Shown here: one piece after another, positions 20,231-63,706 of the stretch
How positions within the stretch are numbered: the first letter of the stretch is position 1
How the letters are laid out: each line of letters begins with the position of its first letter
Notes under the pieces: model-generated
Told to the model about the DNA's origin: nothing
The model's input: the letters and a program-made list of their open reading frames with translations, nothing else
The model's database searches: none
Assembly: GCF_004010195.1 (NCBI RefSeq)
Contig: NC_057756.1
Span: forward strand, 7,864,945 to 7,928,944
Origin: Chiloscyllium plagiosum
Taxonomy: Eukaryota
DNA: 64,000 nt
Direction of reading: 5' to 3'
Position numbers and translations under genes: made by a program

Positions 20231-20699
20231 TGTGAGCCATGGCAATGACTGTCTAGTCTACACAGAAATAACATCAAAGATCTTTCCAACAGTTTACAGT
20301 TTGCATGCAGTGACAGCTATGGCGCTGTTTTCTCACAATTTCCTCATTTCCTGATTTGAATCATCTTGACATTTAGTTATCAAACACACACAGGGGCTGC
20401 AGCACAGGAAGAGGCCATTCCACTCAGGCAGAGCATATGGGCAGTTATTCCCCATGCAAGTAATAGGACAGCTCAAGGGTAAGTAATGGAGTGACAGGAA
20501 CTCACATCCATGAGCAACATCATGTTTCATAGATACATAGAATCCCGACATAGTGGAAGCAGACTATTTGGCCCATTGGGTCCACATTGACCTTACAAAG
20601 ACCAGCACACCCAGAATCACCCTCTGACGCTATCCATGTAACCCTGCATTTCCCATGGTAAATCCACCCAGCCTGCACATCAATGGACACAATGAGCAT

Positions 20700-30353: not shown

Positions 30354-30769
30354 CAGAAAGGAAACAAGGAACCGGAAACAAAATCTAAACTGAATTCATA
30401 TTTGAAGATGATCTGTATGAAAACTGCGGCACGGTGGCACAGTGGTTAGCACTGCTGCCTCACAGCGCCAGAGACCCAGGTTCAATTCCCGCCTCAGGCG
30501 ACTGACTGTGTGGAGTTTGCACGTTCTCCCCGTGTCTGTGTGTGTTTCCTCCGGGTGCTCCGGTTTCCTCCCACAGTCACAAATATGTGCAGGTCAGGTG
30601 AATTGGCCATGCTAAATTACCCGTAATGTTAGGTAAGGGGTAAATGTAGGGGTATGGGTGGGTTACTCTTCGGCGGGTCGGTGTGGACTTGTTGGGCCGA
30701 AGGGCCTGTTTCCACACTGTAATATAATGTAAAAAAAATGACTAGGGTCCTGTATATGGAAATATATAA
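30354..30769 (+). pseudogene. Plus-strand receptor-tail exon remnant (EDDLYEN...GPVYGNI*) split by a SINE
   Basis: attcctatcgcag| acceptor, ERKQGTGNKI*TEFIFEDDLYEN, SINE at 30426-30737, then D*GPVYGNI*. Confidence 0.4.
30426..30737 (+). mobile_element. HE1/V-SINE-type SINE
   Basis: Full-length copy of the same family. Confidence 0.9.
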
Positions 30770-38000: not shown

Positions 38001-39401
38001 AAATCAAAATGCCAATTCTTTCACTGGAGTTTACTCACTGAATTACATAAAGTTATGTTTATCTGCTTGAAACAGATATTATGGTTGCTGATGCATCGTC
38101 AAGAAGGTAATCATGCTCGATTAGATTGATGATTTTAAAAAATCGATATCGGTATTACGGAGGATGAAGGTGAATGAATGTCATTGTGATTTATTTTATG
38201 TTTTTATGGTGGAGATATTTTCATGTTAATGTCACAATGAAATGCATTTGGAAATGGTGTTCCATTTTCCAAAGAGGGCGGCGTGTTGTTGGTATATATG
38301 TATAATTCAGGTCCAAGGCCAAATGAAATTTAAAACTGTTTGGATGTTTTGCATTAAAAAATGGTTTACCAAGGTTTGATGGGACACGAGACTTCTGGGA
38401 ATTGGTCAACGTTAATGTGACTGTGATTCACCTGATCATTACTGAAATGTCGAGAGACTTTTGAAAGGAGAAAAGTGAAGCTTTTAAGAGGGATTAGGGG
38501 TAGGTTTATGGTTTTAATTGCCAGACAAAACTTTGTTGAAACTAATGGCATGTATGTGCTGAAGGTTTTCAGCTGTACTCTTCTGGAATTGGTTCCTGCT
38601 TTTCCAGGACATCTGTATGTGTCATGGGGAGAAATGATCTGAAAATATGCAGTAGGCAAGTCTCTTTCTCCTGAAAAAAACAAGAAGACACCTTACACCA
38701 GGGTAAGCTGCACAAATCTCTCCCTCAGTGGGCACCTGAGAAAGTTCAAGTTATCGGTATTTCTGACAATCTCGTCAACACTGAAAGCTGGACTCTTTCT
38801 TCTACTCAAAGACCTAAGTCTAATTGACTATCCACCTGTCTGAAGTCTGATCTAAATATATTCCATCATTCTATGGTGGACAGTATTTCAATCTTGTCGA
38901 CAGGAAACTGACTTTATCCTTTGGGTAAGGATCTTTAGCTTGTGGGTGGTGTTTTTATTGCCCACCACAGCGCCACCCCCACTCCTCCACAGCCTTAACT
39001 TTTAAAAGAATATCACCTCTGCAGAGCTGGATGATATTTGCCATGTGAACATTTTCATTCGTGTTAATGCGACATTGTTTAATTCTGGAATGTATCACAT
39101 TTGGAAACAGTTTTCCTCCTCCTTTTAATAATACAGCCTGATTATAATTAACTTGCTATTTTTCTGTGTGTTACAGAAATTTAGGGAAAGTCATGAATAT
39201 TCTGGATAATGGCGTGAAAGAGTAGCAGTATGGTGACTGATTCAAAACGTCAATGTTTGTGAACTGGAGTGGTAATTGAGTCGTGATATGTGCCAACACT
39301 GGTTATTGCACGCATAAAATAAGCAAATTAAGCAGAACGTTGTGTAGTTTGCAATTCAGTGATGAGTGTGAATTACTGAAGAATTAAAATATATCACTCA
39401 C

Positions 39402-39740
39402 TCAAAACACGAAGCTGGGTTCCAGGAAAGAAGCTGTAATCAATCATGTTGCTGATTTCTACTCTGAAAAGATAAGGTCCTGCACCCGCCCATCTGGTGT
39501 TGTTGATAATCAAGAAACAGTCACCATCATTCAGGTCTCCAGGCAGCCGCGTCCAATGGCGGAACCATGGCAATTATTGACTGTGATCCTGGGAGTGAAA
39601 GGTTATCGATGATGTGACTAGTTTCTCATTATGAAAACAGATTCCAACTTGTGGTTGGTTTGCCAGATGTGAAGGGTAACTGTAATGACATGGAAGCTGC
39701 GCACAGAAAGCGTTGCCTTTCCATGCTTGTGTCAGTCCAG
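39402..39740 (-). pseudogene. Siglec-like V-set exon, copy 3 (pseudogene)
   Basis: ccccag|CT GGA CTG ACA... reads GLTQAWKGNAFCAQLPCHYSYPSHLANQPQVGICFHNEKLVTSSITFHSQDHSQ*LPWFRHWTRLPGDLNDGDCFLIINNTRWAGAGPYLFRVEISNMIDYSFFPGTQLRVL|GTGAGT. In-frame TAA at 39574-39576, 27-nt deletion versus copy 4, C-strand W to C. Confidence 0.9.
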
Positions 39741-41747
39741 CTGGGGAGAGAAATAACAGTATTTATCAGTGGATTGGCTGTAGACCAACCAGACTCAGTG
39801 GATGAACAGCCTCAGAGCAGGTTTCGTTATAAATCAGAGGCTGTTTACTGAAAACCACGGTAGCAAAGAGACCACATCGTGTTGAAAGGGGACAAATGTT
39901 GGGGACCTCTGGGAGAGGATATTTTCTCAGTTATACATGTGGGTCTCACACAAACTCAAATTCATTTACACAAAGTGAATTGCTTTCCATTTTACCCGTC
40001 TTTCACACTCACGCTGCTGTTTCACACTCACTCTCCCAGACCGAAGGGTCTGTTTCTGTGCTGTACGTCTCTATGACTCTAAGAAGTCCTTGGAATTCAT
40101 AAATCACAATTTGAGAATATGTGCAACTAATGTCACAGAGATCTGCAGCATAGAGAAAGGCCCTTCGGCCCTTTGTGTTCCTGCCAGTCGAATACAACTA
40201 GTTAATTATTCTAATCCCATTTTCCAGCACTTGGCCCATAACCTTTTAGGCTTTGGTATGGCAAGTGCATATTGAAATACTGATTAAATGTTCTGAGGGT
40301 TTCTGCTTCTACCACCCTGCAGCCAGTGAGCTCCTGATTCCCATCACCCTCTGGGTGAGAGTGCATCTCATCAAAACCCTTTTCTTCCTACCTTAAATTG
40401 CTGGTCATTGATCCCTCCACAAAGGAGAAAGGTTTCTTCTGTCTACTCTCTGTGCCCCCCATAATTTTATTAATCTCAATCATGTCTCCCTCAATCTCCT
40501 CTCTAGGGATAACAACCCCAGCCGATCTGATCTCTCTTCATAACTAAACCTCTCCAGTCCAGGCAACAACGTGGTCAATAATTCTGCACCTTCTCCGGTG
40601 CAACCACATCCCTCCCATAATGTGGATTCCTGAACTGCACACGATACTCTAGCTCTGGACTAACTAATGTTTTATACAGTTCCGGCATCACCTCCCTGGT
40701 TTTGAACTCCATGTCTGGGCTAATAAAGGCAAGTAATCCATATGCCAAACCATATCAGCCTTTTCATCTCTGTATTCACAACACAGAAAAATTAAAATTG
40801 TCCAAGACCCCGAATAGTTACTCCAATCACTCCTGAGCAGACTTTTGAATAATTCCCATACTTCATGAATGATTAATTCCAGACACTGGCTTTATATTTT
40901 AATAATTGATAACTTTAGCAGAGAAAAATTAAACAACATGGTAGTCTAAACTTGTCTATCCTATAAACTGGAAACACTTGTTTCAGCCCCATTCACACAG
41001 ACAGTCAGGCAAAGAAACAGGATTCATGCATATATAAAAGACAATAACAAAATTGGCCATATGACTTAAATGGTTTTCAGGATGCATTGTCTCACAGGTA
41101 TGAACATGAACTCCTTGGTTGCTTTTTCTGGAAATGTTGATCAGGATCACCTTTTGAGTTAACTCAGATAAAAGTAGTCATGATTTGGAGACAGAGAACA
41201 CAGGGGGCCAACACCTTCAACATATTGTCTAGCTATCACCATTGTTAACAGCTAACCCGAGAATGTAACTTTTAAAAAAAAGGTTTTGTGATTTACACGT
41301 GAAAGAAGTGGAACTATCACTGTATGCTAACAGATGAAAGGCTTAACAGATAATCAATTTTTCAATGTATAAATTCAGTTACATCACACTGTAAATTTTT
41401 GCTATAAATTCTGTGTTACGATCGAGCCCTCCACTATCACTATCGCTCCGAAAGCTAGTGTGCTTCCAATTAAACCTGTTGGACTATAACCTGGTGTTGT
41501 GTGATTTTTAACCAGATAAAAATAGTAATGCTGTCTGTGTTTCTGGAAACTGGGGTGGGAGATTAGCCAGAGAGCTTTCAAATTTCGTACTGTATCATCA
41601 GCACCAAAGTCATCTCACTAGAAAATACTGTTCAAAAAAATAATTTAACCCTGGTTGCACCTTGATATACTGACCATCTTTGCCCGAGGCCTCAATTACC
41701 ATTCAAGACCTACCATCTCCTTGAATGTAGGTTCTCTTCCAGACTTG

Positions 41748-43773
41748 GAGAAAGTGAGGACTGCAGATGCTGGAGACCAGAGTCAAAAGTGTGGTGCTGG
41801 AAAAGCACTGCAGGTCAGGCAGCATCTGAGGAGCAGGAGAATCGACGTTTCGGACAAAAGTCCTTCATCACGTATGGGGCTTGTGGGCCGGCGGGCTGAG
41901 AGATAAATGGGAGGATGGTGGAGTTGGGGGGTGGTAGCTGAGAATGCTTTAGGTAGATAGGCGGTGGGGGAGGGGGGAAAGGTGACAGGTCAGAGAGGAG
42001 GGTGGAGCAGATAGATGGGAAAGATAATGGACAGAACAAGAGGGCACTGCTGAGTTGGAGGCTTGGGACCGGGATAAGGTGTGGGGAGGGCGCAAATGAG
42101 GAAACTGTTGAAATCCACATTAATCCTACGTTGTTGCAGGATCCCAGGGCAGAGAATGAGGTGTTCGTCCTCCAAGCATCGGGTGATTAGGGTTTGGCGA
42201 CGGAGGAGATCCAGGATCTGCATGTCCTTGGTGGAGTGAGAGGGGGAGTTGAATTGTTCAGCCACGGGGCGGTGGGGTTGGTTGGTGCGGGTGTCCCAGA
42301 GATGCTCTCTGAAACAATCCGCAAGTTGGTGTCCTGTCTCCCTAATGTAGAGGAGACTACATCAGGTGTAACGGATAGAGTGGATGACATTAATGGAGAT
42401 ACAGGGAAATTTCTGTTGGATGTGGAAGCATCCTTTGGGGTCTTGGATAGAGGTGAGGGGGAGGTGTGGGCACAGGTTTTGCACTTCCTCTGGTGGCAGG
42501 GGAAGGTGCCAGTAGTGGGTTGAGGGCTGGTGGGGCGGGCATGGATCTGACAAGGGCGTTACGGAGGGAGGTCTCTCCAAAATGCTGATAGGGATGAGGA
42601 TGGAAATGTATCCCTCGTGGTGGGGTGTGTTTGTAGGTGGCAGAAGTGGTGGAGGATGATGTGGTGTATACAGAGGTTGGTGGGGTGGAAGGTGAGGACT
42701 TGGGGATTCTGTTCTTATTGTGTTGTGAGTGGTGGTGTTCAAGGGAGGAGGTGCGGGAAGTGGAGGAGATGCTCTTGAGGACATCGTCAACCATGTGGGA
42801 GGGGAAATTACACTCTTTGAAGAAGGAGACCATCTGGGATTTTCTATGGTGGAATTGGTCATTGTGGAAACAGATGCAGCAGAGGCAGAGGGATTGGGAA
42901 TGAGGGATGACATTTTTACACCCCCGCCCTTGAACCCCACCCCTCCCATCACAATAAGGACAGACCCCTTCTCCCGGTCCTCAACTGCCACCCCGTCAGC
43001 CTCTATAAACATAGCATCGTCCTCCGCCACCTCCGCACTACAAACAGGCCCCACTATCTGGAATATATTTCCCTCTCCATCCCTATTAGTGTTTCTGAGA
43101 GACCATTCCCTCCATGACTCCCTTGTCAGATCAACCCCCCCCTCATCAGCCCTTTGAACATTCACCTGTATCTCCACTAATGACATCTACTGTATCCATT
43201 GCACCTAATGTTGTTTCCCCTCTATCGGGGACACATTTGCCAAATTGTGGATTGTTTCAGAGAACATCTTTGGAACACTTGTACAGACCAACCCCACTGT
43301 CCCATGGCTGAAGTCTTCAACTCCTTTTCCCACTCCACTAAGGACATGCAGGTCCTGGGACTCCTCCGTCTTCAGACTTGAACCACCTGACGCCTGGAGG
43401 AAGAATTCCTCATCTTCTGCCTTGGGATCCTGCAACCACACAGGATTAATGTGGAATCCACCAGTTTCCTCATTTTCCCTCCTCCCACCTTGTCTCAGTC
43501 GCAAGCCTCTAACTCGGCACCACCCTCTCGATCTGTCCGTCGTCTTTCCCATCTATGCTCCACCCTCCTCTACGACCTATCACCTTCTCTCTCACCTATC
43601 TACCTATTGAATTCTCAGCTACCTTTCCCCCAGTCCCACTCTCCTCCCATTTATCTTTCAGCCCCTCCTCCCAGCCCACAAGCTTCATTCCTAATGGAGG
43701 GCTTATGCCCGAAATATCGATTTTCCCGAATGCTGCCTGACCTGCTGTGATTTTCCAGCACCTCACTCTCGAC
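41748..43773. mobile_element. Penelope-like element with inverted arms (GIY-YIG remnants on both strands)
   Basis: 15-bp TSD tctcttccagacttg at 41733-41747 and 43774-43788; empty site in the paralog at about 61862. Confidence 0.85.
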
Positions 43774-43847
43774 TCTCTTCCAGACTTGCCAGAACTAATT
43801 CCCAAGTGCTGACCTAATTAATAGCCAACTTCTGTTTAAACACTGTG

Positions 43848-44166
43848 GGCGGCACGGTGGCACAGTGGTTAGCACTGCTGCCTCACAGCGCCAGAGACCT
43901 CGGTTCAATTCCCGCCTCAGGCGACTGACTGTGTGGAGTTTGCACATTCTCCCCATGTCTGCATGGGTTTCCTCCGGGTGCTCCGGTTTCCTCCCACAGT
44001 CCAAAAAACATGTAGGTTAGGTAAATTGGCCATGCTAAATTGCTTGTAGTGTTAGGTGCAGGGGTAAACGTAGAAGAATGGGTCTGGGTGGGTGCACTTC
44101 GGCGGGTCGGTGTGGACTTGTTGGGCCGAAGGGCCTGATTCCACACTGTAAGCAATCTAATCTAAT
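43848..44166 (+). mobile_element. HE1/V-SINE-type SINE
   Basis: Full length; absent at the paralogous site near 61930. Confidence 0.9.
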
Positions 44167-45841
44167 CATACTGATCTTCCTGGGATCACTGTGTCTGTTG
44201 GGATCCTTTTAATCAAGAATCAGCCTGCAGTTAACCTCTAGGCCTGGCATCACAAACAAATAAAAGCTTGTTTTGTCTGTTCTTTTTCACCACAAGCTCT
44301 TCCGAAGTGCACAGGTCATTTTCAGCTCACAACTCCTAGATCACAGGTTGAAACAAAACTTGGCAACAGAGTAAAACCAAAAATAATAAGCAATCAGCAA
44401 GGTTCTAACACGTCCTTAACTATTTTATCCATCTGTCATGATACTTTAAGGGATCAGTGTACATGCTCTCCAAGATCCCTGTGCTCTTTGATGCTTCCCA
44501 GGGTCCTATTATTCATCATGTGTTCCTTTGCCTTATTTGTCCTGCCCACAAACATAACTTCACATCTTTCAGAATTGAACTCCATTAGGTACCAATCAGC
44601 ACATGTGACAAGCTCATCGATACCCTCCTCACTATTTTTAACCTCACCAACATTTCTGTCATCTGCAAACTTACTGATCAGCCCTCTGACATTCAAATGT
44701 GAATCATTTATATAAACCACAACCAGCAAAAATCCCAAAACTGACCACTATGGGATTGTACTGGTCACAGACGTCCACTGGAGAAAACACCCATTAACCA
44801 CCGCCCTCTGCTTCCTGCCACTTGGTCAATTGTGAATCCAGCTTGCCATCATTGCTTGGATCAAATGGGCTTTGATATTTGCTGTCACTCTCCCACACAT
44901 GACCTTATCAAAAGCCTTGCAGAAGTCCAAGAAGACGACTTCAAAACCATTGCCTTCCAATCCACACCTGGTCACCTCTTTGGAAAAATCAACCAAGTTG
45001 TTCAGGCATGACCTGCCCCTAACACCTTTCCTGCTGTAAGGAATCACTCTGAATCTTCATTGATGAAGGGATCCCTTTGGATTCTCATTGTGTAAGGGAT
45101 TATTTTTGATCCAAATCTAATGTTGTTGTATTGTTAATTCTGATACAGCATAGGAGACCAACTGTTCCCCAAGCTCAGTACTGATCCTACTACAGCAGAC
45201 ACTATGAAACAGTCAAACAAAGTGTGTCTAACCTGAGCTCTGTATGTGCTGACAGTAAAGATAAATATGGAATCAAATGTTTGACACGTTTACTGACTGC
45301 TTTGCCTTTCTTTATCTGTTGGTTATCTCACCCCCTTATTGAGGTTTGTAGCACTGTGAAATTTGACAGGAAGTGTGATGTTGAACAGCATGTCTATTCT
45401 AGGAGCTGCTGTGTTGTCTTCATGGGCAATTCTAATGAAAATCAGCATAAGACAGAAATTACAGACAATTGTAATTGGACTAGCAGTTTCAGAGTAAATA
45501 TCAATCCCCAGTTTTTATCATGGCTCACTCCCATGACTAGATCAGTGTTCACTGATTTCCGTTGGTTACCAAAGCTTCAACTTTATGATAATCATCACTT
45601 ATTTCCCATACCATCATCTCCCTTCTCCATTTCCTAATCCTTTATTCTCCTCTTTATCTGAAATATATACTGCGAGATCTCTCTGCTCCGCCACTACTGT
45701 TGTCAGAACAGGAGTCAGTGCATATCGGTGAGCACATGGGTGATGGGTGAACTAGACTTGATGTGAATTCCCATCACATTGATACAAACAATCTTTAACA
45801 AAGACTATTACCCATAAATCTTTCTGTGGTAATAATATTAT

Positions 45842-45920
45842 CTTGAAGTGACAGCAGAAAATAAGATTTCCCGATTATTTTCCACTCCTAGATATTTCAT
45901 CAGCTTCTCCACCTTAAGGT
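45842..45920 (-). pseudogene. Leader exon copy 3, disabled
   Basis: ATA ATC GGG AAA TCT TAT TTT CTG CTG TCA CTT CAA G|ATAAT: start ATG changed to ATA and donor GT changed to AT. Confidence 0.7.
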
Positions 45921-46342
45921 CTGAAAGAGAAAGGAGTTAATAAGACCTCACATCTTGTACAACAGTTCTCAAGAGATCAGATAATCTTTTAAATAATATC
46001 CTGACAGGCTGCTTTGTTTCTCTGCAGAATGATAGGTGCTCTACAGAGAGTTAGAAGGCTTCAAGAAAGTAAAACAATAAAAGATGTGAATCTCTGCAGA
46101 GTTTTCACCTCTTCGGGATGTCTCAAAGCTCCTGGCTCTACATATTACTCATCCCTTGATCAAGCAAGATGATCTGTTTGACTGACTTGAGGTTTACAGC
46201 CAGATAGCAAGAATACACAGAAACCATTAAAAGGCATCAAATATTTGAATCTGTCCTTACAACATCAACAACAGATGATCTTGATCTTGAAAGTAAGTTC
46301 CTGTTGTTCTGTTACTATTCCTGGATCTGTCCAACTGCTCAC

Positions 46343-46460
46343 CTGGGGAGTAATTGTCAATATGCACTGCTTTGGGGTCAATATTCTCTTTCTGTGCTAC
46401 ACCCCCATCTGTATTTCTTTAGAATTGTTGATGTGTCAATGTGGGTGAGATCAGTAAGTG
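46343..46460 (-). promoter_or_regulatory. Copy 3 non-coding exon 1/promoter, ETS core mutated (CAGTAAGT)
   Basis: CCCCAG|GTGAGC donor at 46343; positional homology to copies 1 and 2. Confidence 0.4.
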
Positions 46461-47464
46461 AGATGGTAGCAGTTTGCCCAGAATTTCAAATAAACTGTTA
46501 ACCCTTTTTGTGGCCTTGATGCAGACCCAGGCAGGATTTAACTTGGTTCCAGGAGGCGCATAGAGTTTCTCCTGATCTTCTCTCAATGGTTTCTATCCCC
46601 TCATTGATATTAACTGTAAATAGCTTAGGCCCTAGTAGCAATTCCTATGGACCCCACTCATCCCAGCATATGCTTCTACTGTGCACAATAACCTTCATCT
46701 AGCAACTTGTCAAATGCTTTCTGTTAATTGAAAAACAGTACATTTACAGGCTCTCCTTTGTCCACAATACTGATTATTCCTTCAAATAACTGCAATAAAT
46801 TGGTTAAACATGATCTCCCTTTCACAAAACAATGTTGAATCTTCCCGAGTACATTGAATTTGTTGAAATGCTCAGTAATAACCTTCTTAATGATCAATTC
46901 TAACAGCTTCACCATGATAGAAAGTTTCATCAGAACAAGAGTTTCCTATTTTTGACTTCCCTCCTTTGAGTAGATGGGTTATATTTGCAACTTTGTAATG
47001 CAGTGGAATCTTCCCAGGGCCCAGCAAATGTTGTAAAACTAAGAACAACCCATTAACTGTGTCTTTTACCACTTCTGTTAACACGCTGGGATGAAATACA
47101 CCAGATTCCAGGGATTTGTCAGCCCACAGCTCCATCAGTACCACTTACCTCATAATTGTATGCACTTTCATAAAGGTTCTCTCTCTCTCTCTTCCTTCGC
47201 CTGATTTACATTTCTCTGTGTGGAGTTTGTACGTTCTCCCTGTGTCTGCGTGGGCTTCCTCCGGGCGCTCCGGTTTCCTCCCACAATCCAAAAAAAAAAT
47301 GTGCAGGTTAGGTGAATTGGCCATGCTAAATTGCCCGTAGTGTTAGGTGAAGGGGTAAATATAGGGGAGTGGGTCTGGGTGGGTTGCGCTTCGGCAGGTC
47401 AGTGTGGACTTGTTGGGCCGAAGGGCCTGTTTCCACACTGTAAGTAATCTAATCTAATCTAATT

Positions 47465-48266
47465 TGTTGGGGCAGAATGAGGAAATAAATCACTAGACAC
47501 CCAGAGTCCACCTCCAGCATCAGAGTTTATTGAAATTATACCGGTCGAAAGAAACTTCTTTCAGATGCTTCTTCAATGAACAAAGGAAAGATATCAACTT
47601 TTATACACTTGTTTTCAGTCTGCCTTTGGTATTTGCTGGGCAATCATATTATTATTACATCACACCCAATCAAATTAATTATGTGACAGTATCTCAATGA
47701 TGGGCAGTCTTATGGATAACCCTCGGTCTTCCCCGATGTCATGATGCTTACCGGACACCTTACCTCTATCCTTGGGACTTTCTCAATGCCTTGTATTCAA
47801 CCACATTGGAATTCTGCTGACGTCTGCACCTATAATTCAATCCTCCCTGTAAGCAGTGTGGGGGCCTCTTCTTACTGTCTCAGGCCATCTGTTGGTAGAA
47901 TCTCTTTAATGCTTATTGTACTTTAGAAGATTAGATATATTTGTATATTTTCAAAATCTATAACTCTGATGATCTAGGAATTCTAACGAAAGTAAACCTA
48001 TTTCTAATGGATCTCAGCTAGGTATGGAGTTCTTCAGTCAGCATACTTAAGCATGTCCTTATTAAGCTGACTCGATAGAAAACTCTGCAACTGTTTTTGA
48101 AACTGGCCTCTTTGTCTGTTATCTTAATCTTGTTACCATCTCTACAGAGCTGCTATTGTTCTAATTTATGGTTCACCGTAATATTACAATAAACAAGCTA
48201 TTCTAAGTCAACTGAAAACGACTTTCAGCGATTTTGTGCTGCTTTTAGCCATGGGCAGCCTGAACA
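47465..48266. mobile_element. Probable solo LTR
   Basis: About 800 bp bounded by TGTT...AACA, inserted into a CR1 remnant next to a SINE. Confidence 0.4.
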
Positions 48267-50369
48267 TATTTATCACTGGAATGTTTTTGTATTCTCTGTG
48301 GTGATACATGGGAAGAATACTTATTTATTTCATTCACTATTTCCATATTTTTCCCACACTCCCTAGAGCAACAATACGCACCTTACTTAAGTTACTCATT
48401 TTTAGATATGAGTAGAAACAATTGCTAATCACTTTTTCACTTTCTGATTAGTTCCCTCATGCTTCACTTTCTTTCTCCTGATTAACCTTTTAGGGATTCT
48501 CTACCATTCGATACATTATGATCAGTCATCTGACCCACCACTATCTTGTGCACAACTACATGCTTTTCCTCAAGCTTGATGTTTCCTGAACCCCTTTACT
48601 TAACCACAGATAGTCGGATTTCCCTTTAGAATCATTGTTCATAGGAAGAGTGTATTTACTCTAAATATCCTGAAATATCCCTTTACATGCTTTCCACTCT
48701 GTCTCTGTGTCTATTGATCTATTCCTAGCCTGTTATATAAATTCATTCCAGCTAGTTCAGCTTTCACACCCATATGCTTGTCTTTATTTAAGTTTAAAAT
48801 ACCAATCTTAGTCCTAATTTGAGCAGATGCCCGTACTCTAAGATCAGACATTAATCCTACCACATTAACCAAGGTCAAGTCTAGTACATTCCAGAATGTG
48901 CTGCTCTCAGAATTTATTTCAAAATTATTCTATCAACTCTTCATCCAGGCTACGACTGCAAATCTGATTTTTCCAGTTTAGATGTAGATTAAAGCCACCC
49001 AAGATTATTACCATCCCTTCATTGTGTATACTTTGAGGGTATAAGCTATGAGGAGACATTGGATAAACTTTGTTTTCACTTGAATGTTGAAGGATGAGGG
49101 ATAGAACCTGATAGAACCTTACAAAATTATGAGAGGCATGGATAGAATGGATAGTCAGAGTCTTTTTCTCCAGATAGAAAAGTCAATTATGAGGAAATAT
49201 AGAATTCAGGTAAAATGTATAGGTTAAAAGGAGATGTAAGTGGCAAGATATATGACTGACAAAGGGTGGTAAATGTCTGGAATATGCTACCAGAGGAGGT
49301 GGTGGAGGTGGAGACAATAGTAATGTTTAAGAGGCATCTTGAGTGATATATGAATTGCAGAGAATTGAGGAATACGGGCAATGTAGAGGCATCATGATGA
49401 GTGATGGAAGCAGATTCAGCAGGAGCTTTCAAAAGGGCATTTAGACAAAGTGTGAATGAGTGGGAAATCGGAACCAATTGATTAGATCAGATAGCCAGAA
49501 CTAGCATGATAGGCTGAATGGCCTCTTTCTGTGATGTATCAATCTGTGCTTTAATGAATTTTAACTGATTAGAGGCAAACAGGGAGGCTCAATAAATTTA
49601 TAACTTTGATAAAACTTTACACTGGCTTGTGTTCTGTTTAATTCCCTTCTTGTGGTCGCTGTGTTGGGGAGAATGGGCAGGAAGTATGAGGCTGGACATT
49701 CTATTCTGACTGCTGATGTGTGGGGAGAGTCTCTGCGATCCTCTTCTAGCCACGAGGTTTAGGGAGGGAGTTCCAGAGCTCAGGATCCAGACGGCCACCA
49801 ATTGAGGAGCAATGGAAAGTGGGTTAAGGTCAAGAGGTAAGAATTGGAGAAATAAACAGACTTCGGAATGTTGCAGGTGCTGGAGGAAGTTACAGATATA
49901 TTGAGGGGGGTAGGGATTCTATGAGGGTATACCAATAAGGAGAGTTGTACAGGGGTGGGCAGGAGAGCACAAAGACATGGAAGAGTATCGGACAGGAGGA
50001 AGGTACCGAGATAGAGAGGGGTATAGGTACTGGAGGAAATTAGAAAGATAGGGAAGCAGTATGAGCCTTTGTCACGAGCATGATATATTCTGAGTGTGCA
50101 TGATGTTAAGAGCTTCTCTAGCATAATGCAAAAATTTTCCTGAAGCCTCTGTCTGAGCAACTTCATGTACTCAACTGGAATATTTCCTCCTGTGTGTGAG
50201 AAGGTAGGAACATTACAATGCCACCACTGGCAGGAGGATGTAACTACAATGTGACATGTTTACGTTGAAAATTTCCATTACACATTTAACCCAAGATTTC
50301 AAATAGTGTGAGTAAGCTTAGAAAATACGATACTATCTTTAAGCCAACAATTTTCAATCAATGCAGAGT

Positions 50370-50415
50370 TTAATTGATGTATATCTGCAGATCAGCCTGA
50401 CTATTGTATTCCACT
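50370..50415 (-). CDS. Candidate terminal exon (VEYNSQADLQIYIN*)
   Basis: ttattacatttattaacag| acceptor; the phase-2 frame gives two Tyr and a stop. Confidence 0.3.
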
Positions 50416-50628
50416 CTGTTAATAAATGTAATAATGCTCAGAACAGACACACTCCTCACAATGCCTCACTGCATTCAGAAAGTATGTTCTGGTCTGATAA
50501 CAAAGTTGAGTGAAGTCATGTTTATGTACAGGACTATTCATCCACATTGGCTACACTCAGTCTTGTGTTTGATAGGGTCACGCAGCAGCACTGGGGAGCT
50601 GAAGGGATGAGGAAAAGTCTCAGCTTAC

Positions 50629-50668
50629 TGAGGAGGAGAAGCTCTGGTTTGAGGTTTCTCTCCACACA
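50629..50668 (-). CDS. Candidate 40-nt cytoplasmic exon (VWRETSNQSFSSS)
   Basis: ttgcttcttag|TGTG...CTCA|GTAAGC. Phase-2 start matches the phase-2 end of the TM exon. Confidence 0.4.
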
Positions 50669-51550
50669 CTAAGAAGCAACATGTTGAAGTTTAATTGCAC
50701 TCCATTTGCTAAAGACATCCTGCTGGTAAATGGCTGTTTGTGTTGATGTTAAGAATAAGAACTTTATGTAATGAGCTGTCAAGGACAAAAAGAAGGAAGC
50801 AACGCTGAACATATATCAGGCTCTGTTAGCTCACAAAGACAGTATTGTGTCTAGTTCTGGTCACCACACTTTAGGAAGGACATGAGGGGCCTTGGGAGGG
50901 AATTTGAGAGACTTGAGAGGGAAAGAGGGAATGGTATTTAAGAGGGTGTGGTGGAAATTGATTGGAATGGTTCCTGGAAGCAGGGATTTTAGTAACAGAG
51001 TTCACTTGGAGTAGCTGGGACTGCTCCCCTCAAAGTGGAGGAGATTGGTGGCAGTCTGACCGAGATGGAGCAGATAGGGACAGGTCTAGATCAGGAAGGC
51101 AAAGGAAAGCTGTTCCCATTTGCTGATGATACAAAGACCAGGGGGGACAATTGGAAGATTCTTTGTTGGATAGACAGAGTGGAGATTGTGAGAAAGGACT
51201 GTTTTACACAGCGAGTGACAATGATCTGAAACTCGCTGCCTACAAGGTGAGGTGGTTGGGGAGATGCTCACTGATTTCAAATAGAAATTTGTGAGCATCA
51301 GACATTTGTGGCAAATAAACTCTAAGAACAATGAAGAGAGAATGGCGAGATGGGACTGATTGACCTTACAGAGAGAGCTGGCATGACACTGGATGGGCTG
51401 AATGGCCTTCTTCTATGCTGTAATAACTCTGTAATATGAAGATGATCCTAACCAGTGGTATTATCTGGATTCTGTGTAATTTAAACCAACAGTGCTTTGG
51501 TTGCACTGAAAAAGCTTGAAACAGCCTTTTAGTTTCGTTTAACTGTTTGC

Positions 51551-51638
51551 CTCTCACAGACACAAACACCAGCAACAATGAATATCCCAGCTCGTATTTC
51601 CAGGATCAGGATTACATGCAGACTCTCTCCTCTGCAAT
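51551..51638 (-). pseudogene. Second identical copy of the candidate transmembrane exon
   Basis: Lies within the 859-bp tandem duplication. Confidence 0.55.
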
Positions 51639-52409
51639 CTAGAAAACACCAAGAAAGAATTAATCTCTTACTGTCCACTTGCAATCTCTCACTGTGGAAG
51701 AACACTCAGCTTCATTTCACTACAACATTTCCTATAATATTGGTGGTGATGCAGTAAGAATGCCTCTGGGTTAGCAATTCAGAATGCAAAGCTGATATTC
51801 TGGGAGCACGGACTTAAATTCCACTGCGTTAGATAGTGAAATTTAAATTGAAGTAAAAATCTGGAATTAAAACTTTAGTCTAATCCCATTTGGTTCAACT
51901 AATGGCCTTCAGGGAAGCAAATCTGCTGAAATTTTACCCTATCCAGCCTATATGTGACTCTAGTCCTACAGCCGATGAAGGGCTTTTGCCCGAAACGTCA
52001 ATTTCGAAGCTCCTTGGATGCTGCCTGAACTGCTGTGCTCTTCCAGCACCACTAATCCAGAATCTGGTTTCCAGCATCTGCAGTCATTGTTTTTACCTCA
52101 GGTCCTACAGCACTCTGATTGAATGCTCACTGATTTCAAATAGAAATTTGTGAGCATCAGACATTTGTGGCAAATAAACTCTAAGAACAATGAAGAGAGA
52201 ATGGCGAGATGGGACTGATTGACCTTACAGAGAGAGCTGGCATGACACTGGATGGGCTGAATGGCCTTCTTCTATGCTGTAATAACTCTGTAATATGAAG
52301 ATGATCCTAACCAGTGGTATTATCTGGATTCTGTGTAATTTAAACCAACAGTGCTTTGGTTGCACTGAAAAAGCTTGAAACAGCCTTTTAGTTTCGTTTA
52401 ACTGTTTGC

Positions 52410-52497
52410 CTCTCACAGACACAAACACCAGCAACAATGAATATCCCAGCTCGTATTTCCAGGATCAGGATTACATGCAGACTCTCTCCTCTGCAAT
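52410..52497 (-). pseudogene. Candidate transmembrane exon of copy 4 (DCRGESLHVILILEIRAGIFIVAGVCVCE)
   Basis: Strong acceptor ttctttcttggtgttttctag|, phase-1 start, hydrophobic stretch containing E and R, ends AG|GCAAAC (GC donor). Confidence 0.6.
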
Positions 52498-53539
52498 CTA
52501 GAAAACACCAAGAAAGAATTAATCTCTTACTGTCCACTTGCAATCTCTCACTGTGGAAGAACACTCAGCTTCATTTCACTGCAACATTTCCTATAATATT
52601 GGTGGTGATGCAGTAAGAATGCCTCTGGGTTAGCAATTCAGAATGCAAAGCTGATATTCTGGGAGCACGGACTTAAATTCCACTGCGTTAGATAGTGAAA
52701 TTTAAATTGAAGTAAAAATCTGGAATTAAAACTTTAGTCTAATCCCATTTGGTTCAACTAATGGCCTTCAGGGAAGCAAATCTGCTGAAATTTTACCCTA
52801 TCCAGCCTATATGTGACTCTAGTCCTACAGCCGATGAAGGGCTTTTGCCCGAAACGTCAATTTCGAAGCTCCTTGGATGCTGCCTGAACTGCTGTGCTCT
52901 TCCAGCACCACTAATCCAGAATCTGGTTTCCAGCATCTGCAGTCATTGTTTTTACCTCAGGTCCTACAGCACTCTGATTGACTCCTAACTGCCCTCTGAG
53001 CCACAAGTGCTGATCCATCCAGTGACATGCACAGCCCATGAATGAATTTTGTAAAAAATCCACTGGGATGAAATGTAAAGTATGTCTTTCTGAACATCTA
53101 ATGGCTACTCAGAGATCTCAAAGTCACCCAGCCCTTTTCAGTGTAAACCCTGGGAGAGTGCCCAATCTGGCCAAAACACCAAACCTGCACATCTTTTGAT
53201 TGTGGGAGGAAACCAGAGCACCAGGAGGAAACCCATGCAGACACAGGGACAATGTGCAAGGTCCACACATACTGTCACCCAAGGCTGGAATTGAACCTGG
53301 GTACTAAACACTGAGTAACCGTGTCGCATCAGAGATGGTACAGGTGAATTTGAGGTTAGGGTGAAAGGTGTGGGTGAAGTAGATGAACTGTTCGAACTCG
53401 TCATGGGAGCACAGGGCAGCGCCAATATAGAAATCATTGAAGATTGTCAGCAAAACCCATCAGGCTCACTATGATGTTTAGGGAAGGACAGTGTTGACAT
53501 TATCAGGTCTCGCATATGACTCCAGACCCACAGTGATGG

Positions 53540-55100
53540 ACAGGTCCGGAGGGACTGGGATAAGGTAGGGGGAGAAGAAATGAAGAAGTTGTTTCAATTC
53601 ACATTTATCCCATGTGATTGCAAAATCCTAAGGCAATCTTAATATGAGGCGTTCCTCCTCCAGGTGCTGGGGGGAAACAGTTTGGCAATGGGGGAGGCCC
53701 AGAACTTGCATGTCCTTGACGGAGTGGGAAGGGGGAGTTGAAGTGTTCAGCCACGGGGCGGTAGGGTTGGTGGTTGCGGGTGTCCCAGAGATGCTCTCTG
53801 AAATGATATGCAAGAAGGCGTCCTGTCTCCCCAATGTAGAGGAGACTACACCGGGTGCAACGGATGTAGTAGGTGACATTGTTAGAGGTACAAGTGACTT
53901 TCTTATGATCGTGGAAGGATCCCTTGGGGCCTTGGACAGAAGTGAGGGGAGTGGTGTGGGTGCAGGTTTTGCACTTCCTGCGGTGGCAGGGAAAGGTGCA
54001 ATCTGGTGGGGGGTGTGGACCTGATGAGAGAGTCACGGAGCGAATAGTTTTTTTGGAATGCTGATAGGGGTCGGGGTGGGGGGAGGAATATGTTTCTGCT
54101 GGTGGCGTCTGTTTGGAGGTGGTGAAAGTGGCAGAGGATGATGCGTTGTATGCGGAGATTGGGGTGGAAGGTGAGGATCGGGGATTTCTGTCCTTGTTGC
54201 ATTAGCATGAATGGAGTTCAAGGGCGGTGGTGTGTGAAATGGAGGAGATGCGTTGGAGGGCATCATCAACCACTTGGGAAGGGTAGTTGTGATCGTGGAA
54301 GAAGGAGGCCATCTGGGACTTCCTGAGGTGGAATTGGTCATCCTGGGAACAGATGTGGCAGAGGCGGAAGAACTGGCAATAAGGGATGCCGTTTTTACAG
54401 GAGGTAGGGTGGGAGGAGGTGTAATCTAGGTAGCTGTGTGAGTCAGTGGGCTTGCAGTATATGTCTGTGGTTAGTCGGTCTCCACAGACGGTCTAGGAAG
54501 GGGAGGGAGGTTGCTGAGATAGTCCAGGTGAATTTGAGGTCAGGGTGAAAGGTATTGGAAAAGTTGATGAACTGTTCAACCTCCTCATGGGAGTATGAGG
54601 CCGTGCCAATACAGTCACTGATCTAGTGGAGGTACAGCTTGGAGGTGGTGCCGGTGTAACTGCAGAAGTTGGGCTGTTCCACATATCTGACAAACAGGCA
54701 GGCATAGCCGGTTCCCATTGGGTGCCCATGGATACCCCTTTGGTTTGGGGCAAGTGGGAGGATTGGATGGAGAAGTTGTTGAGCGTGAGGACCAGGTCAG
54801 CCAGGTGGATGAAGGTGTCGGTGGAAGTGTACTGGTTGGTACGGTGTGAGAGGAAGAAACAGAGGGCTTGGAGACCTTCATTGCGGCGGATTGATATGAA
54901 GAGGTACTGGATGTCCGTGGTGAAGATGAGGCATTGGGGGCCGGGGAAATGAAACTCTTGGAGGAGGTGAAGGGCATGGATGGTGTCATAAACAGTGGGT
55001 GAGGAGTTCCTGGACTAAGGGGACAGGATGATGTCAACTTAGGAAGAGATGAGTTCGGTGGGATAGGCGAAGGCTGAGACAATGGGTTAGTGCTTAGGGA
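53540..55100 (-). mobile_element. Penelope-like element (RT plus GIY-YIG, degraded)
   Basis: QTKGVSMGT RT motif; NVTYYIRCTRCSLLYIGETGRLLAYHFREH GIY-YIG motif. Confidence 0.85.
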
Positions 55101-55583
55101 TACCCAACATGGCATTGCACATGGAAACCATGTATCACTGGTTTGAATGAATTTTTTGAAGAAGTAACAAAGAGAATCAATGAGCGCAGAGCAGTGGACG
55201 TGATCGGTACAGACCTCAGTAAAGCATTCAACAAGGTTCCTTCATAGACTGGTTAGCAATCTTAGATCACATGAAATACAGGGAGAACTAGCCATTTGGA
55301 TGCAGAACTGGCTCAAGGGTAGAAAACAGAGGGTGGTGGAGGAGGCTTGCTTCTTGGACTGGAGGCCTGTGACCAGTGGTGTGCCAAAACAATTGGTGCT
55401 GGGTCCACTGCTTTTCATCATTTATATAAATGATTTGGATGTGAACATAGGAGGTATGTTTAGTAAGTTTACGGGTGACACCAAAATTGCAGGTGCAGTG
55501 GACATAGAAAAAGGTTACTTGAGAGTACAATGGGATCCTAATCAAATGGGCCAATGGGCTGAGGAGTGACAGATGAAGTTTAA

Positions 55584-55770
55584 GGTCAGGCAGCATCCAG
55601 GGAACAGGAGATTCGACGTTTCGGGCACAGGCCCTTCTTCAGGAATGGAATGAAGGCCTGTGCCCGAAACGTCGAATCTCCTGTTCCCTGGATGCTGCCT
55701 GACCTGCTGTGCTGTTCCAGCAATAAAGTTTCAACTTTGATCTCCAGCATCTGCAGACCTCACTTTCTCC
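55584..55770. mobile_element. 187-bp Penelope-like hairpin insertion inside a CR1
   Basis: Flanked by a 48-bp direct repeat (55536-55583 / 55771-55818). Confidence 0.8.
55611..55646 (-). ncRNA. Minimal hammerhead ribozyme motif
   Basis: Same sequence as 5805-5840. Confidence 0.75.
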
Positions 55771-58379
55771 TCCTAATCAAATGGGCCAATGGGCTGAGGA
55801 GTGACAGATGAAGTTTAATTTAGATAAATGTGAGATGTTGCATTTTGGAAAGGCAAATCAGGGCAGGACATATACACTTAATGATAAGGTTCTGGGGAGT
55901 GTTGGTGAACAAAATGTCCTTGGAGTGCAGGTTCATAGTTTCTGAAATGTGGAGTAGCAGGTATATAGGATAGTGTAGAAGGTGTTCAGTACTCATGCCT
56001 TTCTTGGTCAGTGCATTGAATAAAGGGGTTGGGAGGTCATGTTGAAGCCACTTTTGGAATAATGCATGCAGTTCTGGTCTCCATCCTATTGGAAGGATGT
56101 TGTGAAAATTGGAAGGATTCATAAAAGATATATAAGGAAGTTGCCAAGTTTGGAGTGTTTGAGCTATGGGGAGAAGCTGTAATGGTTGGGGCTGTTTTCC
56201 CTCAAGTGTTGGAGGCTGAGGGCGATCTTATAGAGGTTTATAAAGTCATGAGGAGCATGGATAGAGTAAATAAATATGGCTTTCTCCCCAAGTCAGGGAG
56301 TCCAATGGCAGCACGGTGGCTCAGTGGTTAGCACTGCTATCTCACAGCACCCGGGTCTCAGGTTCGATTCCAGCCTCAGGTGACTGTCTGTGCGGAGTTT
56401 GCACATTCTCCCCGTGTCTGCGTGGGTTTCCTCCCACAGTCCAAAGATGTGCAAGCCAGGTGAATTGGCCATGCTAAATTGCCCCATAGTGCTAGGTGCA
56501 TCAGTCAGAGGGAAATGGGTCTAGGCAGGTTACTCTTCGGAGGGTGTTCAAGTGTTTGTTCTCACCACAACATCATAATTCCACATGGCAAACTGTTCCA
56601 GTCCTGAAGAAGGGTTAATACTCAAAGCGTAGACTTATTCCACCTCCTGGTGTTGCCTGGCTTGCTGTTTTCTAATAACGTTCTGTTTGTCTACTTTGTG
56701 CTTGTAACTCTGCAGTTTTATTAACTATACACCATGCGTTCACAGACTTACAGTTTAACCCTCTCTCCCTTAATTGGACTTCACCTATTAACTGAATAAG
56801 TTTGATTTCTATGCTAGTCCAAGTTCATCCCCTGTGGTTGGAGGGTTCCCAGTCGGAAGATAAGACGCTCCTCCTCCGACCGTCGATTTCTATGCTGCCT
56901 GACTTTTTTCATGTTTTGTGCGCACAAATGTCTCTAATACTCTCTCTTGGTCCCTATATCCCAGCCCAATGAATATAAATCCTCCCCAACAGCACAAGCA
57001 AAATACCCCACAAGGAAATCACCCCCCGCTCAGTTCAGATGAAGTCTATCAGGTATCTACAGGTATCATCTTCCTCAGAGCCAGTCCCAGTGTCACAGCA
57101 CCCAGAAGCCCTACATCCTGCACTATCTTTCCAGGCACATTTCCAATTTCTCGTTCACTTGCAAGTGACATTAGGAGCAGTCCAGAAGTTCCTGCTGTGT
57201 TTCTGTTTGCTCATTTTCTTCCAAGCTCACCAAATTCTGACTGTGGGCCCACATCTCCCTTCCTACCTGTGTCGATTGTACATTTGGGATACAACCTCTG
57301 TTATCATTCACCCAGAAGCATTATCCAGTGATATCCCTGGCCCTAGCTGCAGGAAGACAACACACTGTCTTAGAGTCACTTTGACAGCTGCAGAAACATC
57401 TGTCTGACACCAAACTAAAGAATCCCCACTCAGTACAGCCCTTCCACTCTTGCCTCATCCCTCCTGAACAGCTGGGCATTGTGTGTTGCTGCACACCTCC
57501 AGGGATCCATCACCAACATCCAGGTGGAAAACCAGCTGGTGAGTGAGACCTCTGAGAACTCCTGCACTACCTTCCTGGTTCTCTTGGACTGCCAGGTGTT
57601 CTCACTTTCCCTACCTGCCTGCTTTCCCCCAACCTGTGTTATGACCGCCTCCCTGCATGTGCAATCCACATCGTTCTCTGCCTCACAGACACAGCTCAAT
57701 GATTGTAGCTGCTGCTTGAGCTCTGAAACCCAGAGATCGAGTTTGTGCAGCCGCTGTAACTTCCTATACTTGGGCTTGCCCATGACTCCCTGTCCACCAG
57801 AGGATGGGGTTCACGTGGCTGAGCTGACATTTTAGTGTATCTTTAGTAAAATTTACTTTCATTAACCTGTTTCTTGTGCTGTTAACTAATAACCGATAAT
57901 GAGCAGAAAGTAGAAATCCTTGGCCCATGTTTACATATTATCTTCCTCTTGTGCTTATAAATTTTACCTTCCCAGTGCTAGTTTACAAAGTCACATTTTT
58001 CAGAATTGCACCTAGCACTATGGGGCAATTTAGCAAGGCCAATTCACCTGGCTTGCACATCTTTGGACTGTGGGAGGAAACCCACGCAGACACGGGGAGA
58101 ATGTGCAAACTCCACACAGACAGTCACCTGAGGCTGGAATCGAACCTAGGACCCGGGTGCTGTGAGATAGCACTGAGCCACCGTGCTGCCATTGGACTCC
58201 CTGACTTGGGGAGAAAGCCATATTTATTTACTCTATCCATGCCCCTCATGATATTGGAACACAGACTTTAACAGCAACTTATTAACAAGCAATATCTCTC
58301 CTGTGATATCACTCTTCGACTACTTTCTGGACATGACCCAGCTACCAGGATGGGTACTCCCTTATAGGCTTGACCTCCA

Positions 58380-59800
58380 GTCTCTTTAAGTTTCTCATCA
58401 TTTACAGTTAGAATTGGAGCTTGTGACTTAGGGGAAGATGCAGTCTTACTGCAAAATGATATATTTGACATAAAGAAGCTAATATGGCACTGTTCACATA
58501 AAATTAATTGGCTTCACAGGACGCACTGTTCAGTGGAAAAAGAAAATCTGGTCTTGTTACTGCTCTGAAACATTTCAAAGTCTATGTCCATCATAACTAC
58601 AAAGGAACACTCATATGTACTGACTGTAATCTAATGGCCTTTGGAGACAAATTTAAAAATCAAAATGCCAACTGTTTCACTGGAGTTTCCTGATTAAACT
58701 AAATAAAGAATTGTTTGTATGCCTGAAGCAGATATTATTATTGCTGATGCACTGTCAACAAAGTAATCATGCTGGGTTAGATTGACGATTAAGAAAATAA
58801 TAAGAAACTGTATCAGTATTATGGAGAATGAAGGTGAATGAATGTAAGTTTGACTTATTTTATGTTTTTATGGCGTAGATATTTTCATGTTTATATCACA
58901 ATGAAATGCATTTGGAAATGGTGTTTCATTTTTCAAGGAGGGAGGCATGTTGGTGATACATTTTTTATAATTCAGGGCCAACACCAAATGAAATATCAAA
59001 CTGGTTGGGTGTTCTGGATTGAAAATGGTTTACCAATGCTTTGATGGAACACGTGACTTCTGGAAATTGTTCAACATTAATTTGCGCTGTGACTCACCTG
59101 ATCATTATTGAAATGTCAAGTAACTTTGGAAAGGAAAAAAGTGAAGCTTTCAAGAGGATTACTTGAGATTTAATTCTCGGATAAAACTTCATTGGAACAA
59201 ATGGGATGTACGTGCTGAAGGATTTTTTTAGCAACACTCTTCTGGAGTTGGGTCCTGTTTTTCCAGCACATCTGTAAGTGTCATTGGGAGAAATTATCTC
59301 AAAATGTGTAGTTGGAAAGTCTCTTTCTCCTGAAACAATAAGAGGATACCTCACACCAGCACAAGCTGCACAGATCTCTCCCTCGTTGAAATATTTCTGG
59401 GAACCTGAGAAGTTGAGATGTCAGTACTTCTAACAATCTCATCAACTCTGAAAGCATGGATTTTCCTTCTATCAAAGACCTAAATCCAACTGACCATCCA
59501 TCTGACTGAAATCTGATCTGAAGATATTCCATCACTCTATAGTGGACAGTGTTTCAATCTGATCGACAGGAAACTCGTTCTTTCCTTTGACTACTGATCT
59601 TAGGCTGTGGGTGTTTTTGTTTCCCCCCTTGGCTTTGAAAATAATATCATCTCTGCAGAGCTGGATGGTGTTTGTCATGTGAATATTTTCATTCATGTTA
59701 ATGGGATATTGTTTTAATTCTGGAAGATACCTTGGTTGTGAACAGTTTTTCCACTTTATTTAAAATGCAGCTTGATTATTGTGAACAAGTTATTGTTCTG
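58380..59800 (+). mobile_element. Gypsy RNase H remnant, polypurine tract and probable LTR (paralog about 37560-39180)
   Basis: ALKHFKVYV...TDCNLMAFGDKFKNQNA resembles the Gypsy RNase H ALxHF..Y..TDHNPL..KxxN motif; aaggagggagg followed by tgt at about 58935-58950. Confidence 0.55.
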
Positions 59801-60029
59801 TGCATTATAGAAACCTGGTGAAAGTCATGAATGTTCTAGATAATGGCATGAAAGGGTAGCAATATGGTGATTTAATCAGAACCATTTACACCAATGGTAC
59901 AGTGTGGTAATTAAGTCATGAAATGTACAAACACTGGTTATCACATCCATAAAACAGACTAACCAAACACAAGGGGGTTTTGCAGTTTTCAACTGGTGTG
60001 CTTTTGAAAAATTGGAATATATCATTTCC

Positions 60030-60392
60030 TTGAAACATGAAGCTGGATTACAGGAAAGTTGCTGAATTTATACATGTTGAATTCCACTCTGAACCAATAA
60101 GGTCCTGCATCTTCCCATCTGATGTTGCTTATAATCAGGGAATAGTCATCATCTTTGAGGTTTCCAGACAGCCAGATCCAATGGTGGTACCGTGGCAACT
60201 TGCGACTGTGATCCTGGGAGTGAAAGGCTATCCACGATGTGACCGGTTTCTCATTATGAAACCAGATTCCAACTTGCGGTTGGTTTGCCAGATGTGAAGG
60301 GTAACTGTAATGACATGGAATCTGTGCACAGGAACTTTCCTGTACTATCACCTCATGTGGAGTATTGACTTTCCACTCTTGTGCCAGTCCAG
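60030..60392 (-). CDS. Siglec-like V-set exon, copy 4 (open frame; splice donor mutated; probably pseudogene)
   Basis: ccccag|CT GGA CTG GCA... reads GLAQEWKVNTPHEVIVQESSCAQIPCHYSYPSHLANQPQVGIWFHNEKPVTSWIAFHSQDHSRKLPRYHHWIWLSGNLKDDDYSLIISNIRWEDAGPYWFRVEFNMYKFSNFPVIQLHVS. 363 nt, phase 1/1. Donor is GGAAAT where copy 3 has GTGAGT; read-through stop at 60022-60024. Confidence 0.9.
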
Positions 60393-63624: not shown

Positions 63625-63706
63625 CTTGGAGAAATGACAGCAGGAAATAAGATTTCCCAATCATTTTCTGCTCCTAGAAATTTAATCAGTTTCTCCCTCT
63701 CAAGGT
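63625..63706 (-). pseudogene. Leader exon copy 4 (MIGKSYFLLSFLQ), donor altered
   Basis: ATG at 63662-63664 is intact. CAA G|TTAAT replaces CAA G|GTAAT, so the only GT is shifted by one base (phase 0). Confidence 0.75.

Follow-up and report, generated by a model that had tools for sequence, protein, structure and literature searches.

An exon trio in a Siglec-like cluster

The analysed window (64 kb; G000:C47:7864945-7928944, G000 being the genome of the bamboo shark Chiloscyllium plagiosum; P and L numbers are our working labels for database proteins and loci) carries on its minus strand, in this order, a leader exon, a Siglec-type V exon (V4, 60030-60392) and a transmembrane (TM) exon with an arginine, the Arg-TM exon (52388-52497). 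Since exons on contig C47 are 100% identical to P0014, which NCBI names Chiloscyllium plagiosum Siglec-like lectin, the window belongs to the bamboo-shark Siglec-like cluster. An initial annotation had proposed that this trio, copy 4 of its family, might represent a single-V receptor with a charged TM. The order leader, V, Arg-TM with no C2 exon in between is indeed present, but the two splice donors that would join the exons are lost.

The leader exon of copy 4 (63625-63664, minus strand; MIGKSYFLLSFLQ) retained its ATG and frame, and V4 an open frame, an intact acceptor and a match to the Pfam V-set domain (E 7e-10). The leader donor had changed from GT to TT, with only two phase-1 GT sites before the stop (scores -1.8 and -6.3), and the V4 donor from GT to GG, with no phase-1 GT within the last 120 nt and a read-through that stops two codons on; both donors were observed in one assembly only. 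In donors from intact-looking leader, V and C2 exons of the family, GT was present in 26/26 cases (scores 7.8-14.3). The first, B-strand and E-strand cysteines make up the cysteine pattern of a Siglec V domain. V4 kept the first Cys as well as the F-strand Arg (WFRVE, aligned to YFFRVE of Siglec-5), which is retained in 106 of 110 family V domains and through which the V domain is predicted to bind sialic acid. Its E-strand Cys was replaced by Tyr, the sole exception among the 110 domains (109 keep the Cys); judged by aligned Cys positions, V4 thus departs from the pattern that the Siglec-like family follows.

The peptide LHVILILEIRAGIFIVAGVCVC is encoded twice on the minus strand (52480 and 51621), both times within a tandem duplication of 859 bp (51264-52981; one internal difference) that is either a very recent event or an assembly artefact. 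The two identical exons (copy 2, 52388-52497; copy 1, 51529-51638) have an intact phase-1 AG acceptor, the Arg, a G-to-E exchange, an 18-nt in-frame deletion and a stop 8 codons past the hydrophobic stretch, as in relatives. Because the exon stops within itself, no tail exons are needed, and family tail-exon queries on 50370-51500 gave no match; the short tail exons proposed earlier therefore drop out. The earlier description of a phase-1 TM exon with Arg and Glu was right as to phase, acceptor and Arg, but the exon is present twice and the Glu is private to the window copies: 10/10 other aligned copies have Gly at this site, and the same 10/10 are longer by the six deleted residues. As the Glu is found in the window copy only, we read it as decay and the Arg as the conserved residue. 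An origin of the TM as antisense of a plus-strand last exon (50391-50482, 51561-51650) was dropped, since the minus-strand peptide matches the ends of real proteins.

As the initial annotation had stated, no C2 exon was recognisable in the interval from V4 to the TM exon: 24 family proteins gave no tblastn match, blastn with family exon DNA yielded short chance words only, and the C2a profile reached a best E of 0.22, compared with 1e-12 for a broken control C2. Four C2 profiles gave no match across the whole 64-kb window, and the V4-TM interval contains no N gap. A stretch of 32 nt at 28969 that matched 'C2c' proved to be CA-rich intron flank. The interval had been described as transposon sequence throughout. 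This applies to roughly 53.2-56.7 kb, which consists of multi-copy repeats over a tandem-unit junction (53150-56700, no C2 remnant found inside), but 56.7-60.0 kb is largely V-to-C2 intron of the Siglec-like family (56697-60029, minus strand, with homology to both copy 3 and the paralog C47:6218241). Passages of PMC8198044 and PMC4345914 define Siglecs by one or more C2-set domains behind the V domain. The window copy has the F-strand Arg and lacks a C2 domain, the cysteine pattern and spliceability. Judged from its sequence, this copy (leader 4, V4 and TM) is very likely dead, because both donors and the E-strand Cys are lost and the TM shows the G-to-E exchange and the six-residue deletion. 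What had been annotated is a pseudogene junction, not a receptor. Read placements at 50250-51955 were not used as evidence on expression: no RNA source was listed for V4, run X5 (about 2/100 sampled) gave 14 reads, none on the TM exon, run X6 gave none at all and run X1 was gapped there, while run X7 (guessed to be RNA) gave one 162-nt contig whose five differences, compared by eye, fit the intact copy at 5.71 Mb and not the window copy.

We assign a probability of about three in four to the reading that the window holds a broken Siglec-type piece born at a tandem junction together with a decayed copy of a real shark activating-type TM exon.

The Arg-TM exon in shark genes

The window TM exon matches the last exon of real proteins of the Siglec-like family. 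It is carried by 8 of 102 homologs, and a search with the intact exon across 1.84 billion representatives returned 7 matches, 4 of them new. The exon terminates 12 database models from seven species (small-spotted and cloudy catshark, white, epaulette and whale shark, and two bamboo sharks). Their layouts comprise seven of the type V(-V)-C2a-...-TM, one V-V-C2b-C2b-TM, the mis-joined P0048, two CD22-like models made up of C2 domains alone (P0103, P0104) and P0105 with a leader, one V and the TM. Since 11 of the 12 have C2 domains before the exon, the proposal of a C2-less family is refuted. Every intact paralog mapped in G000 also has C2 exons, as do 24/24 longer V4 homologs (proteins below 208 amino acids lay outside that search); a weak, word-limited V4 query of V-only proteins of 64-207 amino acids gave no candidate. 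The first residues of P0103 and P0104 resemble the family leader exon in another frame, and matching C2 exons occur on the small G000 scaffolds C84849, C90995, C97054 and C41776, without a TM. An apparent link of the CD22-like scaffold C90995 to the Arg-TM flank turned out to be merely a shared minisatellite.

Alignment of the TM exons bore out the conserved basic residue that the initial annotation had suspected. The Arg lies within a hydrophobic stretch of 25 residues and is present in 12/12 models (seven species), with variation at the positions around it; in seven named aligned models it is invariant, with a tail of at most 17 residues and no Tyr. The intact Arg-TM relatives thus combine a basic TM residue with a short tail and no immunoreceptor tyrosine-based inhibition motif (ITIM), as paired activating Siglecs of the Siglec-14/16 type do. 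The idea of an activating family consequently survives in part: with its conserved Arg and tails below 20 residues the family likely includes activating receptors, but the window copy itself cannot make a protein. In G000 the exon occurs five times, twice in the window, twice without an acceptor and once intact at 5706371, where it lies downstream of C2a and C2b exons, beyond a 660-N gap. Another TM, likewise short in its tail and with an Arg in a comparable position, occurs in the stingray model P0073; it is perhaps an activating form that arose independently in rays.

By analogy with known receptors, the intact Arg-TM genes are likely to activate through an ITAM adaptor (ITAM, immunoreceptor tyrosine-based activation motif). 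As the Arg-TM comes with a tail that lacks tyrosine, its Arg would recruit such an adaptor, either DAP12 or a member of the FcR-gamma/CD3-zeta family. A TM exon of the zeta/FcR-gamma family with an Asp is present in G000 (CD3-zeta 1e-10, FcR-gamma 7e-8). Duplication, gene conversion or exon shuffling would have copied the ectodomains over from neighbouring inhibitory genes, yielding paired receptors that resemble human Siglec-5/14.

The C47 genes at 5.65, 7.78, 7.85, 7.95 and 8.43 Mb have V and C2 exons, a neutral TM and Tyr tails, the tail classes (ITIM-type or YxN-type) being assigned by our own pattern; the 6.22-Mb gene has a V and four C2 exons, and no end was found for it. In C. punctatum, the V domains of P0024 (Arg-TM) and P0023 (ITIM-type) are 95% identical and their C2a domains 94%, compared with 56-57% between the V of P0024 and Arg-TM V domains of other species. 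In G000, the ITIM gene next to the best Arg-TM copy shares 98.8-99.7% identity, over 3.8 kb, with the C2 exons and introns on the upstream side of that copy. Set against G000 sequences, counts of sites shared within species versus within class were 12:0 for V, 5:0 for C2a and 4:0 for C2b (after the 13-nt break described below). A quick tree scattered the Arg-TM V domains among the ITIM ones, and a single clade of the eight Arg-TM V domains was rejected by the approximately unbiased test (p-AU 3e-61; 32 rows on a quick tree, comprising every Arg-TM or ITIM V domain in the shark set, the window copies and outgroups). Concerted evolution would explain the near-identical ectodomains; the sequences make it clear in bamboo sharks only, and recent independent duplications fit equally well.

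Several observations weigh against this interpretation. All 12 Arg-TM models are automatic annotations, and the visibly mis-joined P0048 reads through the TM. The G000 gene at 5706371 carries a 13-nt deletion in one of its C2b exons and lacks a placed V exon. Mis-assembly could account for its roughly 99% match to the ITIM gene, and the gene assignment of the G000 V and of one C2a used in the shared-site counts is uncertain. The V domains of white-shark Arg-TM models are 92% identical to basking-shark V domains and 92-93% to their own ITIM paralog; this signal is ambiguous, which leaves the bamboo-shark pair as the main support for concerted evolution. At the sialic-acid Arg site, P0023 and P0024 each carry Lys, while their G000 counterparts keep Arg. 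ITAM and DAP10 profile searches of G000 gave nothing convincing, DAP12 not having been searched for directly, and since the NxxR motif is absent from 12/12 aligned TMs, the adaptor cannot be named.

P0105 (XP_048476508.1, whale shark, 171 amino acids) deserves separate mention, as it consists of a leader, a single sialoadhesin-like V and the Arg-TM. Its V belongs to a different subfamily from V4, matches sialoadhesin best (E 8e-15) and keeps the Arg. Its entry into the TM exon lies a few residues further in than in the other models, which may reflect a real shifted acceptor or a stitched model. The G000 counterpart of this V (C82128:371-727) is 72% identical and has an intact donor, on a 4.4-kb scaffold with nothing downstream; searches of the ESM Atlas with P0105 returned generic V-set clusters only. 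V domains of this type have an extra Cys two residues past the B-strand Cys, both in the whale shark and in G000. As a sequence model only, P0105 keeps the idea of a single-V layout in sharks alive, in another V subfamily. One could go further and take the Arg-TM exon as a portable activating cassette of sharks, recombined repeatedly onto CD33-, CD22- and sialoadhesin-like ectodomains, with P0105 as a working sialic-acid receptor of one V and no C2 and the window junction as a birth by phase-1 tandem duplication. We consider this broader view unlikely; if true, it would mean that shark paired Siglecs arose independently of, or long before, the mammalian ones.

More doubtful still is the opposite view, that the exon is a non-activating hydrophobic last exon, such as a glycosylphosphatidylinositol signal or a plain anchor, taken up by automatic models. 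The very short tail, the lack of an observed RNA junction, the mis-joined P0048 and the shifted acceptor of P0105 would agree with it. However, conservation of one Arg amid varying neighbours in a 25-residue hydrophobic stretch, throughout 12 models and seven species, argues against a mere anchor, as does the finding that near-identical ectodomains with ITIM-type tails adjoin the Arg-TM.

Tandem units and the origin of the junction

Comparison of the flanking DNA suggested how V4 and the TM exon came to be neighbours. Unit A extends from a point about 7.5 kb to the right of the window as far as 56697 and contains an Arg-TM copy at C47:7936053, leader 4, V4 and 3.3 kb of intron; it is co-linear, at about 70-84%, with unit B (36450-52730, minus strand), which contains the window TM exon, leader 3, V3 and intron. 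Since the repeat unit reads TM, leader, V, the window TM exon heads the next unit, and because it does so, the V-to-TM adjacency is likely the duplication junction. A tandem duplication would have cut unit A short, so that it abutted the TM exon at the head of unit B. On this sequence evidence, an origin by duplication rather than by later C2 loss is quite likely, and until the duplication took place V4 and the TM exon were probably not parts of one gene. The Arg-TM copy at C47:7936053, 7 kb right of the window, has lost its acceptor and carries a stop in place of the Arg; upstream of it lies an unrelated broken V. Within unit B, V3 (39406-39762, minus strand) is broken by a stop and a 27-nt deletion, and leader 3 (near 45878, minus strand) has lost both ATG and donor. 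The V4 intron tracks the V-to-C2 intron of the paralog C47:6218241 to +9517, about 1.85 kb short of the paralog's first C2 at +11366, and the V3 intron tracks the same paralog to +10186, some 0.7 kb beyond copy 4. V4's nearest intact relatives of known end have a neutral TM and an ITIM-type tail.

It is conceivable, though improbable, that the duplication created an in-frame leader-V-ArgTM gene that acted temporarily as an activating receptor without C2 domains and either died recently or is still alive in other individuals. Because each breakpoint lies within a phase-1 intron, the exons would have been joined in frame. Copy 4 also kept its ATG, both acceptors, the Arg of V and TM and three open frames (leader, V4 and TM), while its sister copies (leader 3, V3 and sister TM) are broken, and the single-V layout recurs in P0105. 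Under a rough neutral model (divergence 0.17, assumed stop rate) the chance of three open frames is p = 0.018, and a period of function after the duplication is favoured by about 2.7 to 1; on these figures a once-working V-TM gene is conceivable. Such a ratio is small, however, and the V4/V3 ratio of nonsynonymous to synonymous substitution rates (dN/dS 0.77, within the 0.25-0.97 spanned by intact pairs) is uninformative. The hits to two donors, the E-strand Cys and the TM Gly call for a long neutral period, and a V of the V4 subfamily is joined directly to a TM in 0/102 proteins, a set biased towards long, C2-bearing entries.

Least probable is that V4 and the TM exon are what remains of a normal V-C2-ArgTM gene that died and then lost its C2 exons by deletion. 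In favour of this, such genes exist (P0019, P0024-P0029), the V4 intron breaks off within 1.85 kb of where the C2 exon should lie and repeats hide the exact junction. Against it, the next tandem unit begins with the TM exon and the 15 kb behind it, an unrelated broken V precedes the corresponding TM copy upstream of leader 4, and V4's nearest intact relatives of known end have a neutral TM with an ITIM-type tail. The pseudogene without C2 exons that the initial annotation offered as an alternative was therefore nearer to the evidence than its receptor, except that the TM exon was probably never V4's. The window itself, under the duplication reading, is a fossil of exon shuffling only.

A minisatellite of about 33 bp recurs in introns of the cluster (C47 near 5700100-5700900, 5705400-5705600 and 7936436-7936910) and occurs, too, at the border of unit A and a little way upstream of two Arg-TM exons; it is a possible substrate for exon shuffling. 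Beyond the window, C47:7940855-7941133 (minus strand) is a broken copy of the C47:8200826-type V, a type without the essential Arg, and C47:7947291-7947534 (plus strand) an inverted first-C2 remnant of a C47:8200826-type copy. The window also contains V2 (13200-13560, minus strand), broken by a frameshift and stops, and an intact leader exon (4354-4393, minus strand), whose next family exons sit left of the window, past an N gap. These comprise a V, three C2, a neutral TM and a Tyr tail (C47:7841492-7854219), and the 7.85-Mb gene likely starts with this leader. Broken cytoplasmic-tail exons of the Siglec-like family were found at 20401-20490 (plus), 30357-30420 (plus) and 19362-19448 (minus) of the window and at C47:7929050-7929127 (minus); the two on the opposite strand point to a local inversion. 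A tail-like remnant of the family also occurs a short distance upstream of several leaders. On another large contig, L105 (G000 C26:36831189-36833346) holds a broken V and C2a of the Siglec-like family.

Comparison with known receptors

The initial annotation had likened the locus to PILR-beta and Siglec-15. This likeness does not hold: the closest solved structures are Siglec-5, CD33, MAG and sialoadhesin, and V4 itself matches Siglec-5 (E 6e-9) better than Siglec-15 (E 1e-4) or PILR-beta (E 0.04). With PILR-beta, the window DNA and P0105 have in common a single V and a charged TM, but V4 has Siglec-type first and B-strand Cys and reaches no better than that E of 0.04. Siglec-15 has one C2 domain. 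Passages of PMC7226832 describe its charged TM residue and activating type, in which the shark exon resembles it; the TM residue is Lys there and Arg here. The Siglec-15-like V family of G000 is separate from that of V4. Eight alike V exons of another family (L018, L019, L020, L025, L027, L028, L029, L030) lie mainly on small scaffolds, and L018, the one of the eight that was compared, matched Siglec-15 best (E 8e-14), which suggests a Siglec-15-like expansion. An Arg in the extracellular third of the TM together with a short tail is also found in LILRA2, PIR-A, NKp46, GPVI and Xenopus XFL, as described in parts of PMC2413239; the FcR-gamma partners treated there carry NxxR, whereas the shark Arg-TM exon does not, and the ectodomain families differ.

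Intact-looking shark relatives bear database names given by similarity only, with the Arg-TM class and the pairing unmarked. A search of the open-access literature, which leaves most subscription journals outside its coverage, found no account of Siglec clusters in sharks or of shark Siglecs of activating type. The passages of PMC7226832, a teleost study, report fish genomes without CD33-related Siglecs and leave sharks unmentioned, those of PMC8455134 name Siglec once, and one supplementary file of PMC3964593 gave no match for siglec, DAP12, TYROBP, FCER1G or CD33. An Arg-TM exon paired with inhibitory Siglec-like genes across sharks is thus apparently undescribed. Shark ITIM receptors with near-identical Arg-TM partners would extend the logic of paired Siglecs to the other main branch of jawed vertebrates; the proteins of interest are P0023/P0024, P0026/P0035 and the single-V P0105.

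The nearest parallel is offered by the human pairs Siglec-5/14 and Siglec-11/16. The shark V+C2 ectodomain is most like Siglec-5 and CD33 (P0026, E 3e-28 and 4e-26), with MAG scoring nearly as well as the CD33-type structures (E 1e-23) in a similarity that ranks against solved structures only. Siglec-14 uses a TM Arg, and if the intact shark relatives work like anything known, they would work like this receptor. As in the human pairs, near-identical ectodomains in sharks are combined either with an ITIM-type tail or with a charged TM and a short tail. Signs of concerted evolution and frequent broken activating copies are further common features, as far as passages of PMC6288428 and PMC13358205 go. 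The former source covers, in the parts available, Siglec pairing, gene conversion and null alleles, and describes mammalian paired Siglecs as counter-traps against microbes that mimic sialic acid. Unlike the human pairs, the shark family has one to several V domains, and its Arg-TM exon also occurs on CD22-like and sialoadhesin-like models.

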